Shown: in pieces, positions 12,164-17,088 of the stretch
Layout of the letters: every line of letters begins with the position of its first letter
How positions within the stretch are numbered: the first letter of the stretch is position 1
Source of the DNA: an uncultured virus (IMG/VR IMGVR_UViG_2061766007_000763)
Taxonomy: Duplodnaviria; Heunggongvirae; Uroviricota; Caudoviricetes
Reading direction: 5' to 3' (one strand)
Virus record (IMG/VR): IMGVR_UViG_2061766007_000763
DNA: 64,000 nucleotides
The notes under the pieces: model-generated
Told to the model about the DNA's origin: nothing
Database searches by the model: none
The model's input: the letters and a program-made list of their open reading frames with translations, nothing else
Position numbers and translations under genes: made by a program

Positions 12164-12472
12164 TTAGGGATTTAGCCATCCGTGAGGATGGCTAAATCTT
12201 TCTATTTCCTTTTTGCATATATAGCACATAAAGACCAAGCAGAATTGGAAGCACAGAGACAGGTAAGACATGAAAAAGGATACAGCCAGAGATTCTATCA
12301 ACCGGCCAGTATTGCGTAATGAATAGACAAAAACTATACAAAAAGTGAAACGCACAGGATGGCTGATGACCAAGAATTGCTTTCCCAGCTTCTTCTCAAG
12401 CCATTTAACCAATCCTGCGTCGTTTACCGCTATTGCAATAAACATCAAAGAGAAAAGTACCGTAGCCTGCAT
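12164..12472 (-). CDS. Small membrane protein
   Basis: Three hydrophobic segments; TATATTTG element at 12481-12488 on the minus strand. Confidence 0.55.
   Translation of the reverse strand: MQATVLFSLMFIAIAVNDAGLVKWLEKKLGKQFLVISHPVRFTFCIVFVYSLRNTGRLIESLAVSFFMSYLSLCFQFCLVFMCYICKKEIERFSHPHGWLNP
12169..12198. terminator. Bidirectional intrinsic terminator
   Basis: GATTTAGCCATCC-GTGA-GGATGGCTAAATC perfect hairpin between convergent genes. Confidence 0.85.
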
Positions 12473-12473
12473 G

Positions 12474-12860
12474 TCATTCGCAAATATAGGGTAACAAAAT
12501 CCTGCTTATTTCGCGCATGAGATAACCTTGGGTCCACGCGGCATCCTCTCCTCCTGCTAAGACATCATAGTGCCGGCATATGGAATATTGTACATGGTCT
12601 ATTTCGTGTGCAATAGTATCCAAAAGCTGCTCTTTGCTGGTGGCCGGGCTTACAAACATGAGGCTCATGGTGGTTGCACTATTGGAAACGGTCATACCCG
12701 TATTCGGATGGAGAAGCACTTCGATAGCCTCTATTATTTTGTATTCCGTCATGCCGAAAGATTGCATTATGGCGTGCATCCGGTCATAATCCCTGCGAGT
12801 ATAGTCGTAGCAGAGTAATATGCCCCAAGCTCCATCTACATCAACATATTTTTCTATCAT
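12474..12860 (-). CDS. HExxH metallopeptidase-like protein
   Basis: DTIAHEIDHVQ...GEDAAW.QGYL. Confidence 0.65.
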   Translation of the reverse strand: MIEKYVDVDGAWGILLCYDYTRRDYDRMHAIMQSFGMTEYKIIEAIEVLLHPNTGMTVSNSATTMSLMFVSPATSKEQLLDTIAHEIDHVQYSICRHYDVLAGGEDAAWTQGYLMREISRILLPYICE

Positions 12861-12899
12861 TTCATTTTATCTTTTTTAAATTATTACTATATTTGTGTC

Positions 12900-12992
12900 A
12901 CGAGGATAGATAGGAGTAGCTACCTATTGACAAGGGTATCAATGCGCCCTTCCTCGTTTCTCAATCGCATTGGTCTTTTAAAGCATTGATAT
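12900..12992 (+). ncRNA. Structured cis-leader RNA of HNH gene 1 (three-way junction plus pseudoknot)
   Basis: Starts 5 nt after TATATTTG (12888-12895); P1 ACGAGGA/TCCTCGT, P2 ATAGG/CCTAT, P3 AGGGT/GCCCT; covaries with the copy at 15106. Confidence 0.75.
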
Positions 12993-13826
12993 ATGAATCA
13001 AGAAGAATTTTGGAAGCCTATAAAGGGCTTTGAGGGGTTTTATGAAGTAAGCAACTTGGGTAGAATAAAATCCTTGGAGCGTATCACCAATCATCCTAAA
13101 GGTAAAAGGCTTGTAAGGGAGTATATATTAAAGCCGTACATAAGTCGCCGTGGTTATTACGAAGTAACCTTATGCAGATTNNNNNNNNNNNNNNNNNNNN
13201 NNNNNNNNNNNNNNNAAATTGTATTAGAGACGTTTGTCCCAAATGTCCAAAATAAACCTTGCATAGACCATATCAATACAAATAAGCTTGACAATCGCCT
13301 ATCAAATCTTCATTGGGTTACTCACAAAGAAAATAGCAATAATCCTATTACCTTGGCAAAAATCAAGAGAGCTCGTAGCGATAAGAATTATATCTCCAAA
13401 ATGCTTGAGTCAAGGCGAGCAAATGGGAAGAAATATGCTCCCATTTATGTTTATCAATACGATAAGAATGGGACTTTTATTAGTAGATATGATAGTCTTT
13501 CAGATGCTTATAGAAAGACGGGCACTACTATAAAAAGCATAACATTAGCACTTGACAATTTTCATTTAACAGGAGGTGGCTATCTTTGGAGTACCACATA
13601 TCACAAACAAGTAACTTATACGCCTAATCCCATTCACAATGCTATTGCTATTTGTGCTTATGATGGCATGGGCAATAAGATAGGAGAATGGAAATCTAAA
13701 AGCGATGCCATTAAGTCGCAGCATATACATCGTCGCACTTTAGAAAAGTGTCTTGCTATGGGCTGTGCATATAAGGACGTTGTCTATAAATATGATAAAA
13801 TCAAAGCATCATATCCCAATGAATAG
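12993..13826 (+). mobile_element. Free-standing NUMOD4-HNH homing endonuclease with NUMOD1-like repeats
   Basis: EFWKPIKGFEGFYEVSNLGRIKS (NUMOD4); CIDHINTNKLDNRLSNLHWVT.KEN (HNH); VYQYDKNG.FI..YDSL.DA (NUMOD1); antisense to the flanking operon. Confidence 0.92.
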
Positions 13827-14217
13827 CAATCCCCTTTGCACTACAATCAGCAAGGTATCTGCAAAGCACAATGCCATCGTAGCCATCCGGGTCGCATATC
13901 ACATCCTTGATATACTTAGCCATGTGTTCCTCATCCTCAATGGAACTGCCCCAATAATCTGCCTTTACCATAGCCGCAAGGTATAACGCATCATACATGT
14001 CGTTTGTGTCAATCTCAACCTTGTACTTGGTAAGCATAGCCTTAACTTCTTCCATTGTAGGCGGCACAACTTTTATCATTCTCTCCGTTTGTGCGTCTTT
14101 TTTCATCATCTTACTTGTGGCGAACTCAAACAACTTTTTGTTGAAATGCCATCCGTAATATGAAAGATATTCCTGCATGTCCTCGGGAATATTATAGTTT
14201 GTAAGTGGTGTGTGCAT
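13801..14217 (-). CDS. Conserved Bacteroidales phage hypothetical protein (DUF7841-like)
   Basis: YLSYYGWHFNKKL; AMVKADYWGSSIEDE.H.A.YIKDVI.DPDGYDG. Confidence 0.8.
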   Translation of the reverse strand: MHTPLTNYNIPEDMQEYLSYYGWHFNKKLFEFATSKMMKKDAQTERMIKVVPPTMEEVKAMLTKYKVEIDTNDMYDALYLAAMVKADYWGSSIEDEEHMAKYIKDVICDPDGYDGIVLCRYLADCSAKGIAIHWDMML

Positions 14218-14281
14218 AATTCTCTATATTTTGTTTGTTAATAATACAAAGGGGCGGGCTCACGCCCAAACCCCTTCAAAA

Positions 14282-14497
14282 TTACATGTAACGACCGCGA
14301 GAGTCGCGAGAACGACGATACATATCCTCCTCGTCTGCATCCTCCCAGCCGTGACGATAGCCCTGACGGTAGCCGTGGTCGTAGTCATCACGGTATCTGC
14401 CGTCATAGCGGTATCCGCCGCGCATATTGCGGCGCATCTCTGAGCGCATCTGCTCTTGTGAGCCTTCGCTCCCTTTGTCAACAAATATCCAACTCAT
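14282..14497 (-). CDS. Small Arg/Asp/Tyr/Gly-rich low-complexity protein
   Basis: GYRYDGRYRDDYDHGYRQGYRHGW...RRSRDSRGRYM. Confidence 0.75.
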   Translation of the reverse strand: MSWIFVDKGSEGSQEQMRSEMRRNMRGGYRYDGRYRDDYDHGYRQGYRHGWEDADEEDMYRRSRDSRGRYM

Positions 14498-14511
14498 TGT
14501 AGTAAGGGTAT

Positions 14512-15060
14512 TTAGGGTTTCGCGGTCTTGGCCGGTCCGCCATTTAGCGTCCTCAAGATATTAAGCATCTCCGCGCTCTGCTGTTCAAGAGTCGCCAGAC
14601 GTTTGTCTTGAGCATTACTCTTTTCCTGCAGGTCGATTATAGACTGAGCCCGTAGCTTTTCCTCTTTGTAGTTGGGATTGAGGCTTTCGAGCATTTTGTC
14701 TCCTTCGGTCAGTATCATCTTGTGATAGTCAACCTCGGTCAAGGCTTTCTTGGAGGCTTGTATCATGCTATCTACAGCCTGAATCATAGCCTCTCTGCTG
14801 CCGGTAAACGTCTCGTTGCCGCGAGCGGCTATCTCCACGTTGACCGGTACATCCGGGATAACCCTGTCATTGCCGTTGACTGTCACTGTGATACTGGTTA
14901 CATGCTGCATACCCATGCCGTTATAGACTCCGGGTGTCTGCTGCTGATACTTAGGTTGCGGAGCGGTTTTCTCTTTAACCACACCTTGCTCAAGAATGGG
15001 CTTATCGCCCTTTCTCAGTATATAAAATGGCGAACCTGCGCCAAGACTTTGAAAATCCAT
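14512..15060 (-). CDS. Hypothetical protein with a C-terminal coiled coil
   Basis: FQSL..GSPFYIL.K N-terminus; long helical C-terminus. Confidence 0.8.
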   Translation of the reverse strand: MDFQSLGAGSPFYILRKGDKPILEQGVVKEKTAPQPKYQQQTPGVYNGMGMQHVTSITVTVNGNDRVIPDVPVNVEIAARGNETFTGSREAMIQAVDSMIQASKKALTEVDYHKMILTEGDKMLESLNPNYKEEKLRAQSIIDLQEKSNAQDKRLATLEQQSAEMLNILRTLNGGPAKTAKP

Positions 15061-15105
15061 TGTTAATCACTTTTGTTCGTTAATACTTTTTTGTACCTTT
15101 GCATT

Positions 15106-15201
15106 AAGGGATAGTTCAGTTTGGCCACTGAATGACAAGAGTATTTCTGAGGCTCTTCCCTTTTTCAAAAATCTCAGAATTATCATAAACTCAGAAAATC
15201 T
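15106..15201 (+). ncRNA. Structured cis-leader RNA of HNH gene 2 (same fold as 12900)
   Basis: Starts 5 nt after TACCTTTG (15094-15101); P1 AAGGGA/TCCCTT, P2 TTCAGT/ACTGAA, P3 AGAGT/GCTCT; same TAG and TGACA junctions. Confidence 0.75.
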
Positions 15202-15819
15202 ATGACAAACGAAGAATTTATTGAGTCTGTTAGGCTCGAAGGAGAAGAGTGGAGAGATGTAGTCGGATGGGAAGGCTACTATATGGTGTCATCTTATGGT
15301 AGAATTTTGTCGTTGGGTAGGTTTGTTAAGTATCATACTTACACAAAGATGATAGAACCTTGCATAAAGCAACAACATAGAGGGAGAAACGGATATTTTT
15401 CTGTCACTCTCAAAAGAGACGGGGAGAAAAAATGTATATCCGTACACCGTTTAGTTGCGATAGCATTTGTTTCTAACCCAAACAATTATCCTTGTATAGA
15501 CCATATAAATGATAACAAAATAGACAACCGTGTATTCAACCTACAATGGTGTACTCACAAGTTTAACAACTCTAAAGGACATCATCGTATTGCCGAATCT
15601 TTATCACAAAAAGGGAAGATACTTACATCAATTAGAAAACCAATAGTTCAGTTAAATACTAATGGAGACCTTGTGCGTATTTTTCCATCCATGACAGATG
15701 CAGACCTTAACGGTTTCCAACATTCGGCAATCCATAGGGTTATCCACAACAAGTTAAAAACTCACAGAGGATTCAAATGGATGTATCTATCCGACTACGA
15801 GAATCTTGTCAATCAGTAA
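15202..15819 (+). mobile_element. Free-standing NUMOD4-HNH homing endonuclease with NUMOD1-like tail
   Basis: EEWRDVVGWEGYYMVSSYGRI; VHRLVAIAFV.NP.NYPCIDHINDNKIDNR.FNLQWCT; KPIVQLN.NG.LV..F.S; antisense insertion. Confidence 0.92.
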
Positions 15820-15851
15820 GTCAAAGAACTTTCGCCTTATCATAAGGCCGT

Positions 15852-16193
15852 TTAGTCTATTGTTCTCGACATCAACTGGAGCAAATTGTTGAATCTGTCG
15901 TTGAAAACAAGGATAGCCCCTGTGCCTCCGATAAGTTCAGCAACTGTCACTGCAGTGCCATCAAACAAAGTAAGGTTCCGTGTAACTCCGTTCAGAGAAA
16001 GAGTAACGGGCAGTGTGGTGGTTGTGCCAGCAGGTATCTCACTTGCGAGTCTCACGGTGAAATATCCAACTGGTGCAAGCCTATCCCTTCTCCATCCCAG
16101 CGCAAGGTCAACAGATGTGTCCGAGACTGTTACGTTGGATGTGGTCAGGTAGGGCACGCCTCCTGCGTTGGTGGTAATACTAAAGCATCCCAT
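15852..16193 (-). CDS. Beta-rich hypothetical protein
   Basis: Thr/Val-rich ORF directly downstream of the CCC protein. Confidence 0.75.
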   Translation of the reverse strand: MGCFSITTNAGGVPYLTTSNVTVSDTSVDLALGWRRDRLAPVGYFTVRLASEIPAGTTTTLPVTLSLNGVTRNLTLFDGTAVTVAELIGGTGAILVFNDRFNNLLQLMSRTID

Positions 16194-16212
16194 AACCAAT
16201 CCTCCTTATGCT

Positions 16213-17088
16213 TTAGAATACGATGTTGCCACCAAAGTTGTTGCCGTAATAGCCGCCGTAGAAACCACCACTATAAGGAGTGTTGTTCACAGCAACGAGG
16301 TTCGGATACTGCACCGGAACTGTGTTAGGCATCTTGTTCTCAATCTCCGTCAACTTGGTCTGCAGAGGTGATACGACGGTGTTGACATAACCAATAATCT
16401 GGTTGGTCTGATTAGCATTGTCAATCTGACCGCGAAGCTGGGTTATGATGTCGGCCTGAGTGTCAATCTTGGACTGCATTTCGCGTTCCTTGAGTGCGCA
16501 GAACTGGTCGTTCATAGCAACGGTCTGAGCGTTAATGGCGTTCAGGATGCTGTTGGCGTTGCGGTCAGCCTGAGTCTCCAGAGCGTTGGTCTGCTGGCAG
16601 ATAGCGAGTCTGTTCTCGCAGCAGCAGTTAGCAAACTGAGCGGCCAGAGAGGCGTCACCTGCCTGAATAGCGTTGACAATCTGGAGGGTTGACATACCCT
16701 GTTGTGCGGCAAGGGTTGCCAGTGCGCTCTGTACATTCTGTACTGCACCGAATACTGTGTTGTAGTCCTGACCCAACATGGTTGCAAGGTTCTGGATTGC
16801 TGAACGTGAAGCCTCACCGTTGGAGTTGATTGCGTTCATAATGAGTTCACGGCCAGAGTCGTTGTTGAGCTGATTGGAGAGGAAGCCAGCACCACCGGCG
16901 TTNNNNNNNNNNCAGCCGCCATTACCCCAACCAAACATCGAGGCGATGATTGCAAGGCCAAACAGGTCAGCGATGCTATTGAAACTGCCGAAACCTCCAC
17001 CAAAGCCATTACCCATGCCAATGGGGATAGAAAACGGAATACTTCCGTTGTTGTTGCCGTTCTCGGGCAACTGATAAATTTCTGCCAT
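16213..17088 (-). CDS. Gly/Asn/Gln-rich coiled-coil protein with a CCC motif
   Basis: Gly-rich N-terminus with a hydrophobic stretch; QFANCCCENRLAICQQTN; Tyr/Gly-rich tail. Confidence 0.85.
   Translation of the reverse strand: MAEIYQLPENGNNNGSIPFSIPIGMGNGFGGGFGSFNSIADLFGLAIIASMFGWGNGGXXXXNAGGAGFLSNQLNNDSGRELIMNAINSNGEASRSAIQNLATMLGQDYNTVFGAVQNVQSALATLAAQQGMSTLQIVNAIQAGDASLAAQFANCCCENRLAICQQTNALETQADRNANSILNAINAQTVAMNDQFCALKEREMQSKIDTQADIITQLRGQIDNANQTNQIIGYVNTVVSPLQTKLTEIENKMPNTVPVQYPNLVAVNNTPYSGGFYGGYYGNNFGGNIVF

Follow-up and report, generated by a model that had tools for sequence, protein, structure and literature searches.

A three-way-junction leader RNA before phage homing endonuclease genes, a probable cis regulator of translation related to the orphan motif int-alpA

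Two NUMOD4-HNH genes of an uncultured virus (IMG/VR record IMGVR_UViG_2061766007_000763, of which a stretch of 64,000 nucleotides, here called the window, was analysed) are each preceded by a leader folding in silico into a three-way junction, whose P3 hairpin loop (loop 3) has its complement in two near-identical boxes further along the leader, one some 10 nt 3' of the junction (the 'decoy') and one directly 5' of the start codon. Control of translation in cis, by occlusion of the ribosome-binding site (RBS), is the most likely function of this arrangement, and among the options raised by an earlier sequence-only reading of these loci a cis regulator silencing a toxic nuclease agrees best with the evidence. 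The leader is neither private to this phage nor HNH-specific, and is read as an uncatalogued variant of the orphan motif int-alpA (RF02996), because real RF02996 examples share its apparent architecture, its tail pseudoknot and its second box on the RBS.

Two leader cassettes in a tailed phage

The window is that of a tailed gut phage, with portal, terminase, tape measure, DnaB and RecT genes. A TAnnTTTG box, which we take to be the Bacteroidetes-type -7 promoter consensus, and the layout P1-TAG-P2-TGACA-P3-P1' precede both NUMOD4-HNH genes (Table 1), exactly where the sequence-only reading had placed them; its 5-nt spacing is also correct in that 4 nt separate the box from P1, which begins 5 positions past the last G in both copies. 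The genes follow P1' at a distance of roughly 35–40 nt, their ORFs match the Pfam families NUMOD4, HNH_3 and NUMOD1, and their products are as diverged as had been claimed (35% identity across 195 aa). The stretch from junction to ORF showed no box resembling a promoter in either window copy. Each HNH gene is a self-contained cassette consisting of its own promoter, a structured leader of about 100 nt and the ORF, and both cassettes lie antisense to their neighbour genes.

Both copies have the three-way junction as their minimum-free-energy fold, with a folding energy at z -2.36 relative to shuffles for copy 1 and an unremarkable one for copy 2 (z -0.52, 56 of 200 shuffles folding equally well). 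The junction pattern occurs at these two sites only in the window and at none in 100 shuffles, and the covariance model R1, built from relatives, likewise finds exactly the two leader sites, the next best scoring 12.6 bits and the minus strand of copy 1 scoring 6.7 bits. The word TGACAAG was considered as a sign of further copies, being present 22 times in the window vs 8.9 expected, and was rejected: the other 20 sites, mostly coding, lack the flanking motif, so that no further leader copies are present there. A blastn search of positions 12400–16200 against 50,697 phage records gave two short matches only, covering 2–3% of the query, and hence no annotated close relative among these records. 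An RNA-library contig of a relative (~91% identity) spans 14716–15819; being an assembled contig, it reveals neither strand, ends nor expression.

Table 1. Features of the two HNH cassettes in the window
Feature	Position	Strand	Remarks
TAnnTTTG -7 promoter box, cassette 1	12888..12895	+	read in sequence
Three-way-junction leader RNA, copy 1	12900..12957	+	MFE fold -18.9 kcal/mol; R1 67.0 bits
Copy 1 P1; UAG	12900-12906/12951-12957; 12907-12909	+	read in sequence
Copy 1 P2; loop 2	12910-12914/12923-12927; 12915-12922	+	read in sequence
Copy 1 UGACA; P3; loop 3	12928-12932; 12933-12937/12946-12950; 12938-12945	+	
Copy 1 U-rich linker, P1' to box 1	12958..12966	+	
Copy 1 box 1 ('decoy')	12967..12974	+	loop 3 complement with one G-U; duplex -8.3 kcal/mol
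Copy 1 box 2 (ribosome-binding region)	12983..12990	+	perfect 8-nt loop 3 complement, end 2 nt 5' of ATG; duplex -9.4 kcal/mol
Gene 1, NUMOD4-HNH-NUMOD1, homing-endonuclease-type	12993-13826	+	277 aa; masked N run 13181-13216
TAnnTTTG -7 promoter box, cassette 2	15094..15101	+	read in sequence
Three-way-junction leader RNA, copy 2	15106..15162	+	MFE fold -14.5 kcal/mol; R1 66.2 bits (copy 2 in R1 seed)
Copy 2 P1; UAG	15106-15111/15157-15162; 15112-15114	+	read in sequence
Copy 2 P2; loop 2	15115-15120/15127-15132; 15121-15126	+	read in sequence
Copy 2 UGACA; P3; loop 3	15133-15137; 15138-15142/15152-15156; 15143-15151	+	
Copy 2 box 1	15173..15179	+	7-nt loop 3 complement; duplex -8.3 kcal/mol
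Copy 2 box 2	15190..15197	+	8-nt loop 3 complement, end 4 nt 5' of ATG; duplex -9.6 kcal/mol
Gene 2, NUMOD4-HNH, homing-endonuclease-type	15202-15819	+	205 aa

A mainly viral leader family

When P1, P2 and P3 were each required to contain at least four pairs, at least 96 of at least 233 pattern matches in viral contigs passed this stem filter, with at least 63 distinct copies among the matches listed, and of 122 matches in genomes of bacteria and archaea just 3 did so. On comparative grounds the leader family is real and mainly viral, with covariation in all three stems. In a 25-sequence alignment (A2) 95.2% of cells are paired, a value that, like the junction invariance of A2, is high partly by construction since seed sets were chosen by pattern and stem filter, and both partners vary in 14 of the 19 pairs. 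The A2 covariation score of 0.610, compared with 0.186 in shuffles, is reached by none of 500 shuffles and falls to at most 0.118 when partners are slid, while RNAalifold predicts the same fold as the A2 model. A further alignment (A4), comprising 17 leaders reached through HNH homology and independent of the pattern, is 91.7% paired, with 15 of 17 pairs changing on both sides and a score of 0.615 vs 0.263. These compensatory changes bear out the earlier claim of a conserved RNA fold whose stems differ while pairing is kept. Conservation in the family is much higher at the junction letters than in the stems. The invariance claimed for these letters is true of the two window copies but not of the family, where UGAUA, UGAAA and CGAAA occur in J2/3 besides UGACA, and CAG occurs once in J1/2. 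P3 ends in a U-G pair in 18 of the 25 A2 sequences, which bears on the strand that is read.

The TAnnTTTG box is present in 36 of 65 family members, ending 6–9 nt 5' of GAUAG in 35 of these 36, and sigma-70-like boxes lie upstream in nine of the 65. All 17 R1 hits to leaders of HNH relatives are on the gene strand, and in most family loci the ORF starts about 30–42 nt after P1'. The sequences suggest a leader read on the strand of its gene, from the promoter onward, and judging by promoter spacing transcription probably starts at the first P1 base or a few nt from it.

Pfam searches of 61 ORFs behind the leader identified 23 as NUMOD4/HNH and six as GIY-YIG, with two each of Bro-N, integrase, Prim-Pol and DUF4379, one each of Lin1244_N, amidase and portal, and 21 without a Pfam family. 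By these assignments the genes are mostly selfish or accessory. The leader accompanies only 17 of 80 HNH relatives; three of these 80 loci, for which no start preceded by 100 nt of sequence could be set, were left out, and of the 63 relatives without a leader 60 were evaluable, 59 of which also lack the box signature described below. The tabulation of downstream genes that the sequence-only reading had suggested shows ORFs of other families or of none besides the NUMOD4/HNH genes, and the dedicated ncRNA-HNH system it envisaged does not stand. In one relative HNH gene 2 has been replaced beyond the first ~50 nt of its ORF, the leader and this ORF start being kept. The leader and these first ~50 nt are also over-represented in one metagenome run.

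An anti-RBS loop and its two boxes

Boxes were defined as stretches complementary to loop 3 over at least 6 nt with at most one G-U, and were sought in 61 non-redundant leaders. Two boxes were found in 34 of them, one in 18 and none at this threshold in nine, compared with two or more in 1.05% and one in 10.6% of 3618 mismatched loop/leader pairs. Box and loop 3 sequences vary freely in the family with complementarity kept, and in 44 of 51 two-box loci box 2 ends 0–7 nt 5' of the start codon. GGAG-type leaders have CUCC or UCCC in loop 3 and the GGAG-type site itself as box 2; read from its letters, box 2 is the Shine-Dalgarno sequence in hosts using one. The HNH-derived set contains two boxes in 14 of 17 leaders, and a strict 7-mer signature ('two boxes plus inverted copy') is present in 12 of the 17 loci that the model detects, in 1 of 60 that it does not, and in 20 of 1540 shuffles. 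A second leader class with the same logic was not found among the 60 evaluable model-negative HNH loci, the single hit being at shuffle level. Between P1' and box 1, the linkers of the 51 two-box loci are mostly 7–13 nt long and consist of 58% U and 3% G. The mean duplex energy over these loci is -8.80 kcal/mol for box 1 vs -8.32 kcal/mol for box 2, with the stronger pairing to loop 3 at box 1 in 30 loci and at box 2 in 18. As box 1 pairing is on average as strong as that of box 2, the RBS could often be free at equilibrium, and strong repression is not implied.

The repression and switching that we infer would operate as follows. The first 57–58 nt of the transcript would fold into the three-way junction and present two loops, of which loop 3 would act as an anti-RBS able to pair with either of the two near-identical tail boxes. 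Engagement with box 1, forming a pseudoknot about 10 nt after P1', would leave the ribosome site free, engagement with box 2 would make the ribosome unable to load, and the relative occupancy of the two states would hold translation of a potentially harmful selfish gene at a low, controlled rate. Since loop 3 can cover the ribosome landing site, the leader probably limits nuclease output.

RBS-sequestering RNA structures are an established control of T-even homing endonucleases according to PMC2988022, in which a 5' RNA structure in the leaders of endonuclease genes, free-standing or carried by introns (I-TevI, I-TevII, I-TevIII, segB and Aeh1 mobE), pairs with the RBS and limits translation, as is proposed here; similar hairpins precede 'fractured gene' endonucleases, as outlined in PMC2677866. 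The T-even leaders are portrayed in PMC2988022 as simple hairpins with a late promoter inside, so that late transcripts escape repression, whereas here the promoter lies upstream of the entire structure. Of these two T-even traits, base-pairing of the RBS within the leader recurs in silico in both window copies, where box 2 ends 2 and 4 nt 5' of the ATGs, and embedding of the promoter in the inhibitory structure does not, as TAnnTTTG lies 4 nt 5' of P1. Also unlike the T-even hairpins, the anti-RBS loop is mounted on a conserved three-way junction that also bears a palindromic loop, and an additional 'decoy' box is present.

A self-complementary loop 2

Of 54 loop 2 hairpins, 53 hold a Watson-Crick palindrome no shorter than 4 nt and 37 one no shorter than 6 nt, compared with 44% and 10.5% of shuffled loops, and with 10 of 51 and 1 of 51 for loop 3. 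The self-complementary core, present in 25 of 25 A2 sequences, is usually 4–8 nt long and varies in sequence while staying self-complementary. Its centre is +0.5 or +1 nt off the hairpin centre in 47 of 54 cases, so that the palindrome is not a stem extension, and the few matches of loop 2 to its own leader (two in 1 of 61, one in 5 of 61) indicate that the tail is not its target. The window copies carry mutually different palindromes of 8 and 6 nt, the three copies in record G160 all differ in palindrome and in loop 3/box words, and so do the two copies on one contig (L374 and L377). Neither this loop nor the loop 3 boxes appeared in the sequence-only reading.

It is possible that the loop 2 core joins two leaders by a loop-loop kiss, giving a candidate dimer. 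The HIV-1 DIS is a kissing-loop dimerisation site formed by a hairpin loop with a self-complementary core, and the leader would resemble it in having a 4–8-nt self-complementary core flanked by purines and varying between members, here on a bacterial-virus mRNA leader. In replication control of IncI-alpha/IncB plasmids (repZ/repA, Inc RNA) a pseudoknot between a loop and the RBS region activates translation, and a kissing antisense RNA regulates it. Common to both systems is a hairpin loop able to pair with a stretch by the RBS, and RNA-RNA control in the plasmids begins with loop-loop kissing; the plasmid regulator is a separate antisense RNA, whereas here the box lies over the RBS itself, and the partner, if there is one, would be another copy of the same sense RNA. 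A more tentative and rather improbable proposal is that the leader senses the dose of its own transcript, with no protein involved, through loop 2 pairing of two RNA copies. These could both be mRNAs, or one could be a short RNA that comprises the junction alone and ends in the U-rich linker. In such a complex one loop 3 would occupy the decoy box and the other the RBS box, one kiss, two loops and two boxes satisfying all conserved elements together, and translation would be turned off only at high transcript abundance, e.g., as phage genomes multiply. Because palindromes and loop 3/box words differ per cassette, each cassette would count only its own RNA.

Relation to int-alpA

A cmscan against Rfam 15 gave no match, so that the element, which the sequence-only reading did not recognise as a named family, is also without kin at the level of database hits, but its architecture fits int-alpA. 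This motif reportedly originates from a survey by Weinberg and colleagues of 2017, and its name implies integrative elements near integrase/alpA genes of Proteobacteria. RF02996 is typed 'Gene; sRNA' in Rfam, and its consensus has a U run directly after a G+C-rich P1. Both families follow the order P1, UA, P2 closed by G-Y, a 5-nt A-rich joining strand starting with GA, P3, 0–2 nt, P1' and a U-rich linker; in both the first box pairs with loop 3 (in int-alpA inside the 3' end of the Rfam model) and the second lies on the Shine-Dalgarno sequence before the start codon, int-alpA examples combining a CCUUC-type loop 3 with GAAGG at the model end and a GAAGGAG-type site 5' of the start codon. Several junction letters differ between the int-alpA consensus P1-UA-P2-GAAAA-P3-CU-P1' and the present P1-UA-(G..Y P2)-GAnAA-P3-(0-1 nt)-P1': the joining strand is GAAAA in the former and GACAA, GAUAA or GAAAA in the latter, the CU between P3 and P1' is absent here, and P1 has GGA/UCC as its inner pairs where int-alpA has GCC/GGC. 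The CGAAA and UGAAA variants, found through HNH homology, bridge the two. Whereas loop 2 is palindromic almost throughout the present family, it is so in 5 of 10 int-alpA examples, and the other five have a non-palindromic GACG loop 2 with two boxes still present. The settings also differ, namely phages with Bacteroidetes-type and other promoters here and gammaproteobacterial chromosomes for int-alpA, as do the genes, which are mainly homing endonucleases here, whereas none of nine scanned int-alpA ORFs has a Pfam family; integrases follow the leader in only two of the 61 loci, unlike the setting that the name int-alpA implies.

The RF02996 model itself, which scored in 12 of 151 gammaproteobacterial genomes, gave no match in the window at its gathering cut-off (35.8 bits), none in 12700–15400 or 12893–12996 at E up to 10, and none in 20 family loci (E up to 1) or two viral records; R1 in turn reaches at most 6.3 bits on int-alpA sites. 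Literature searches found no description of the endonuclease-leader motif. The main text of the 2017 survey (PMC5737381) contains none of the terms 'int-alpA', 'HNH', 'GIY-YIG' and 'homing endonuclease', and its authors' account of int-alpA may already include the pseudoknot; elsewhere in the literature searched, int-alpA occurs in an Rfam name list (PMC12370729) and in a gene-order use (PMC13612085), and this literature assigns it no function.

Alternative explanations

An alternative that is compatible with the cis model, and would extend it, is that the leader makes a trans-acting small RNA, transcription often stopping in the U-rich stretch to release a junction RNA of ~60–70 nt with a free loop 3. 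This RNA would dock on the full-length mRNA via loop 2, placing its loop 3 on box 2 and the loop 3 of the mRNA on box 1. The Rfam typing of RF02996 with its U run after P1, the near-universal loop 2 palindrome and the match of two boxes to two loop 3 copies are all consistent with this idea, as are the U-rich linker and the 29 of 61 leaders in which U makes up at least five of the 8 nt that follow P1'; yet 32 of 61 have fewer, P1 is short (4–7 pairs, counted from the likely start) and encloses a branched structure, unlike a classical terminator, the one element picked out by a terminator scan was the P3 hairpin of copy 1, weakly and with a poor tail, leaving P1 unflagged, and half of the int-alpA examples are two-boxed with no palindrome in loop 2. 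We consider it possible but unlikely. An improbable reading is that of a riboswitch-like sensor, in which the junction letters (UA, the G-Y pair, GAnAA and U) would bind a small molecule or ion and so choose box 1 or box 2. Several riboswitch aptamers have three helices with one long joining strand, the layout seen here, junction letters much more conserved than stems would suit a binding site, and two mutually exclusive pairings resemble an expression platform. Against this, only about eight conserved unpaired positions could form a pocket, the genes behind the leader serve neither metabolism nor transport, being selfish or accessory, no Rfam 15 riboswitch matches, and the phages with Bacteroidetes-type or sigma-70-like promoters and the Gammaproteobacteria of int-alpA have no shared pathway.

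We hold it to be similarly improbable that the leader is a translational activator or mRNA stabiliser, its 5'-terminal helix guarding against 5'-end-dependent decay or its loop 3-box 1 pseudoknot opening the start region, as the repZ pseudoknot does in IncI-alpha plasmids, so that expression would be raised by the leader and not lowered. The 5' end is indeed predicted to be base-paired in P1, pairing to box 1 equals that to box 2, and the antisense orientation of the cassettes is one where a stabiliser could help, but the covariation of the RBS-covering box 2 with loop 3 would be left unexplained, and for stabilisation a plain 5' hairpin would be enough, with no need of a conserved junction or palindromic loop. 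That the RNA is a cofactor or guide of the HNH nuclease, like nuclease-associated guide RNAs, was the other option of the sequence-only reading, and rests on the leaders of both window HNH genes and the 23 NUMOD4/HNH ORFs elsewhere. It is contradicted by the same RNA standing before GIY-YIG, Bro-N, integrase, Prim-Pol and other proteins and by the many close HNH relatives that have neither leader nor box signature, and the variable loops match their own leader, not an external target; we regard it as exceedingly improbable. Very little probability also attaches to a self-cleaving ribozyme or a DNA-level element such as a protein operator or a recombination or homing site. Ribozymes include small three-way junctions with conserved joining strands, but no Rfam ribozyme matches, and the hammerhead reading was dropped together with a tRNA-like one, the defining core letters and loops being absent and Rfam giving no match. 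A recombination hot spot would fit the kept and over-represented leader and ORF start, while G-U pairs, the one-strand model score and freely varying box and loop sequences with kept complementarity oppose double-stranded recognition.

Implications

Homing endonucleases are selfish and potentially harmful, and to our knowledge their restraint beyond the T4 model is largely unknown. The leader is a single small RNA architecture reused before nuclease genes of unrelated families (HNH, GIY-YIG) and before further accessory genes, in phages with Bacteroidetes-type and with sigma-70-type promoters, and it marks independently transcribed mobile cassettes in phage genomes. For int-alpA-type RNAs, the covarying loop/decoy/RBS triad provides a concrete hypothesis testable by mutation. 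Natural RNA–RNA dimerisation as a layer of control is, as far as we know, rare in bacteria and phages, and the nearly universal self-complementary loop raises the possibility that it may operate here. The leader would also represent, as proposed, a compact, sequence-programmable translation throttle.

The two leader-bearing cassettes

Both HNH genes of the window follow a leader of identical layout (table), and reading of the sequence together with minimum-free-energy folds, which return a three-way junction for copy 1 and copy 2 alike, bears out the observation of two similarly organised leaders made in the sequence-only reading. Apart from these two sites the junction pattern is absent from the window, and 100 shuffles yield no instance of it. 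On folding energy only copy 1 stands out (z of -2.36, against -0.52 for copy 2), so that the case for an RNA fold rests on comparison and not on thermodynamics. The window belongs to a tailed phage, with portal, large terminase, tape measure, DnaB, RecT and SSB genes, and since no further recognisable homing endonuclease was found in it, the leader is present on two of two. The HNH proteins share 35% identity over 195 aa, and both cassettes, oriented against their minus-strand neighbours (region 12474-16199), look like two separate insertions of promoter-bearing units. The 3' ends of HNH gene 1 and a DUF7841 gene overlap by 26 nt (13801-13826). Short N-masked runs occur in the window, for example near 2400, 11520, 16900 and 40800, and one within HNH gene 1 (13181-13216) leaves X at 13 protein positions.

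Features of the two cassettes and their surroundings
Feature	Position	Strand	Remarks
Gene	12474-12860	-	
TAnnTTTG box, copy 1	12888-12895	+	4 nt between box and leader start
Leader copy 1	12900-12957	+	P1 - UAG - P2 hairpin - UGACA - P3 hairpin - P1'
Loop 3, copy 1	12938-12945		
Box 1, copy 1	12967-12974		one G-U
Box 2, copy 1	12983-12990		perfect 8 nt
HNH gene 1	12993-13826	+	NUMOD4/HNH_3/NUMOD1 ORF, 3' of copy 1; start codon 12993
Gene	13801-14217	-	
71-aa ORF between the cassettes	14282-14497	-	R/Y/D/G-rich, RGGY/RYDG-like repeats; no Pfam match
Gene	14512-15060	-	
TAnnTTTG box, copy 2	15094-15101	+	4 nt between box and leader start
Leader copy 2	15106-15162	+	P1 - UAG - P2 hairpin - UGACA - P3 hairpin - P1'
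Loop 3, copy 2	15143-15151		
Box 1, copy 2	15173-15179		
Box 2, copy 2	15190-15197		
HNH gene 2	15202-15819	+	NUMOD4/HNH_3/NUMOD1 ORF, 3' of copy 2; start codon 15202
Gene	15852-16199	-	
291-aa ORF	16213-17088	-	glycine-rich ends, Q/N/A-rich middle, short N run; no Pfam match

Near-identical DNA is found in ruminant-gut metagenome runs. In a relative, a DNA contig from run X4 retains the leader together with the opening ~50 nt of HNH gene 2, 391 other letters taking the place of 15254-15803, and in a goat-gut run (X3) positions 15114-15247 show ~8-fold higher summed contig depth, on six contigs, a pattern consistent with a leader and N-terminus common to several cassettes, for which the two may serve as a shared recombination module. 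An RNA-library contig of a relative spans 14716-15819, although as an assembled contig it carries no strand, RNA-end or transcription information.

A conserved and essentially viral RNA

Two pattern scans of viral contigs returned at least 233 matches, 96 of which, representing at least 63 distinct sequences, passed a filter requiring four or more contiguous pairs in each of P1, P2 and P3. The same pattern run over prokaryotes, one genome per species, gave 122 matches with only three passing, and this control for the filter indicates that the element is essentially viral. The three prokaryotic copies (L254, L259 and L323, in G004-G006) lie on MAG contigs, one per genome, from a Bacteroidales MAG, a Syntrophorhabdus MAG and one more, and may be prophages or binned phage contigs.

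In A2, a gap-free seed alignment of 25 sequences, 95.2% of cells are paired, both partners vary in 14 of 19 pairs, and the covariation score reaches 0.610, compared with 0.186 for shuffled alignments (0 of 500 reach 0.610) and with no more than 0.118 after partners were shifted by 1-3 columns; the RNAalifold prediction agrees and adds a G-U pair that closes P2. The A2 sequences were selected by pattern and stems, and a protein-side set, the best 80 of 585 confirmed viral loci encoding relatives of the window HNH, was assembled as a second route. The covariance model R1, built from relatives, matched 17 of these 80 loci (29.6-78.2 bits), always on the gene strand and just upstream, and the 17 leaders, in an alignment fitted to R1, which favours pairing, have 91.7% of cells paired, both-side changes in 15 of 17 pairs and a score of 0.615 versus 0.263. 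Two results identify the sense strand as that of the RNA: 18 of the 25 A2 sequences have U-G as their last P3 pair, and R1 scores copy 1 at 67.0 bits in the sense orientation versus 6.7 bits on the reverse strand. The window element is a real conserved RNA.

Three leaders (L371, L372 and L373) occur in one complete 82.7-kb phage record (G160), where the proteins encoded behind them are a Cys-rich one of 270 aa, one of 185 aa and one of 463 aa carrying repeated 'GDKYDYS'-type modules. The junction letters deviate in two of these leaders (UGAUA; CAG and CGACA), which the strict pattern overlooked.

Upstream, the TAnnTTTG box was found in 36 of 65 members, ending 6-9 nt 5' of GAUAG in 35 of them, and a sigma-70-like -10 hexamer 5-12 nt 5' of GAUAG in nine; by simple patterns, 20 of 65 have neither. 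From the spacing that usually separates such boxes from the start in Bacteroides and sigma-70 promoters, transcription is predicted to begin at the 5' arm of P1 or a few nt within it.

Self-complementary loop 2 and the two boxes complementary to loop 3

Two further properties, overlooked in the sequence-only reading, reside in the hairpin loops. The four central positions of loop 2 are palindromic in all 25 A2 sequences, in several different words. When 54 distinct P2 hairpins are scored by the longest Watson-Crick palindrome of their loop, 53 reach 4 nt or more and 37 reach 6 nt or more, compared with 44% and 10.5% for shuffled loops, and with 10/51 and 1/51 for loop 3 under the same treatment. 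In 47 of 54 the palindrome is displaced by +0.5 or +1 nt relative to the middle of the hairpin, which rules out an extension of the P2 stem. A loop word of this sort, variable and yet self-complementary, is what two molecules of one RNA would need to form a loop-loop kiss. The two window palindromes differ (one of 8 nt, one of 6 nt), the three G160 copies all differ in loop 2 and in loop 3 too, and L374 and L377, two copies on one contig, differ from each other; one palindrome, however, is so frequent across the family that these differences speak only weakly for selected orthogonality of copies within one phage.

Loop 3 is complementary, in both window copies, to two repeated words of the tail, the 'decoy' box 1 and box 2 adjoining the start codon; the words vary between copies and across the family, with complementarity kept. 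Counting complements of at least 6 nt with at most one G-U, 34 of 61 non-redundant leaders have two boxes, 18 have one and nine none, compared with 1.05% (two or more) and 10.6% (one) of 3618 mismatched loop/leader pairs, and with one two-box and ten one-box leaders when loop 3 was reversed (n = 61). Of 51 two-box leaders, 44 have box 2 ending 0-7 nt 5' of the start codon, and in GGAG-type members, whose loop 3 carries CUCC/UCCC, box 2 and the Shine-Dalgarno sequence are one and the same. A U-rich linker, of 7-13 nt in most cases, leads to box 1 (58% U, 3% G; at least five U in eight in 29 of 61 leaders), and the spacer between the boxes is A-rich. Both boxes are present in 14 of the 17 HNH-derived leaders, and a strict 7-mer signature occurs at 12 of the 17 loci that R1 matches, at 1 of 60 that it does not match and in 20 of 1540 shuffles. 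Mean duplex energies with loop 3 are about equal (box 1, -8.80 kcal/mol; box 2, -8.32); in the window box 2 forms the stronger duplex (-9.4 vs -8.3 kcal/mol for copy 1, -9.6 vs -8.3 for copy 2).

Relation to known RNAs

Against Rfam 15 the whole window gave no match at gathering thresholds, the surroundings of both copies no relevant one with E relaxed to 10, and 20 family loci none with E relaxed to 1. To this extent the sequence-only reading, which recognised no named family, stands, but the architecture of the leader is shared with int-alpA (RF02996), a catalogued orphan RNA motif whose sites were taken here from 12 of 151 genomes of one gammaproteobacterial class. The int-alpA consensus reads P1 (8 pairs) - UA - P2 - GAAAA - P3 - CU - P1', followed by a U run and, at the 3' end of the model, a word complementary to loop 3, and in examples a second copy of that word lies on the Shine-Dalgarno site 5' of a start codon. 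HNH-derived leaders in which J2/3, the strand joining P2 and P3, reads UGAUA, UGAAA or CGAAA bridge the two consensus sequences, and the junction nucleotides, identical in the two window copies, are not invariant across the family. The models are nevertheless blind to each other (no RF02996 match here, R1 at most 6.3 bits on int-alpA sites), and loop 2 of int-alpA is palindromic in only 5 of 10 examples. Given shared architecture and no mutual detection, we place the window element outside the Rfam family as its model defines it, and regard it as an uncatalogued int-alpA-like variant. In the literature searched, no functional study of int-alpA was found. A tRNA gene (L359, 19-100) lies ~1.4 kb upstream of one int-alpA site, which fits an integrative element at a tRNA.

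The closest functional precedent is found in the RBS-sequestering hairpins that control T-even homing endonucleases (PMC2988022), with similar hairpins also reported in PMC2677866. In the T-even case a late promoter within the hairpin allows late transcripts to evade the block, whereas the window leaders have their promoter 5' of the whole structure.

Proposed mechanism and associated genes

The best-supported reading, and in our view a likely one, is that the leader acts in cis as a translational throttle. The junction would hold out loop 3, which by pairing with box 2 would hide the ribosome-binding region and by pairing with box 1 would leave it free. Box 1 is transcribed first and lies one linker's length from the P1-P3 stack, so that the open form may precede the closed one, the latter arising later or in fixed proportion. 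The near-equal duplex energies do not imply strong constitutive repression, and the balance might be shifted by dimers forming through loop 2, by a short RNA that comprises only the junction and ends in the U-rich linker, or by a ligand bound at the conserved junction. Of the two roles originally offered, that of a cis regulator is probably correct, and for a conserved RNA, but one neither specific to HNH genes nor without known kin.

The other role, an RNA cofactor dedicated to the HNH nuclease, can be judged from the first ORF 3' of the leader in 61 loci, which in most starts ~30-42 nt after P1'. NUMOD4 and/or HNH domains are indeed the most frequent by Pfam (23 ORFs), but GIY-YIG, mostly with NUMOD3 (6), Bro-N, phage integrase, Prim-Pol/AAA_25 and a DUF4379 zinc-finger type (2 each), Lin1244_N (1), an amidase 116 nt away (1) and a portal 100 nt away (1) also follow the leader; 21 ORFs, many clipped by locus ends, have no Pfam family. 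Conversely, the R1 leader is absent from 63 of the best 80 HNH-relative loci. As the leader is not tied to one nuclease family, a dedicated HNH cofactor is ruled out, and the element does not constitute the ncRNA-HNH system first envisaged. The varied downstream genes, together with the many HNH relatives that lack it, show instead that the RNA accompanies independently transcribed selfish or accessory cassettes.
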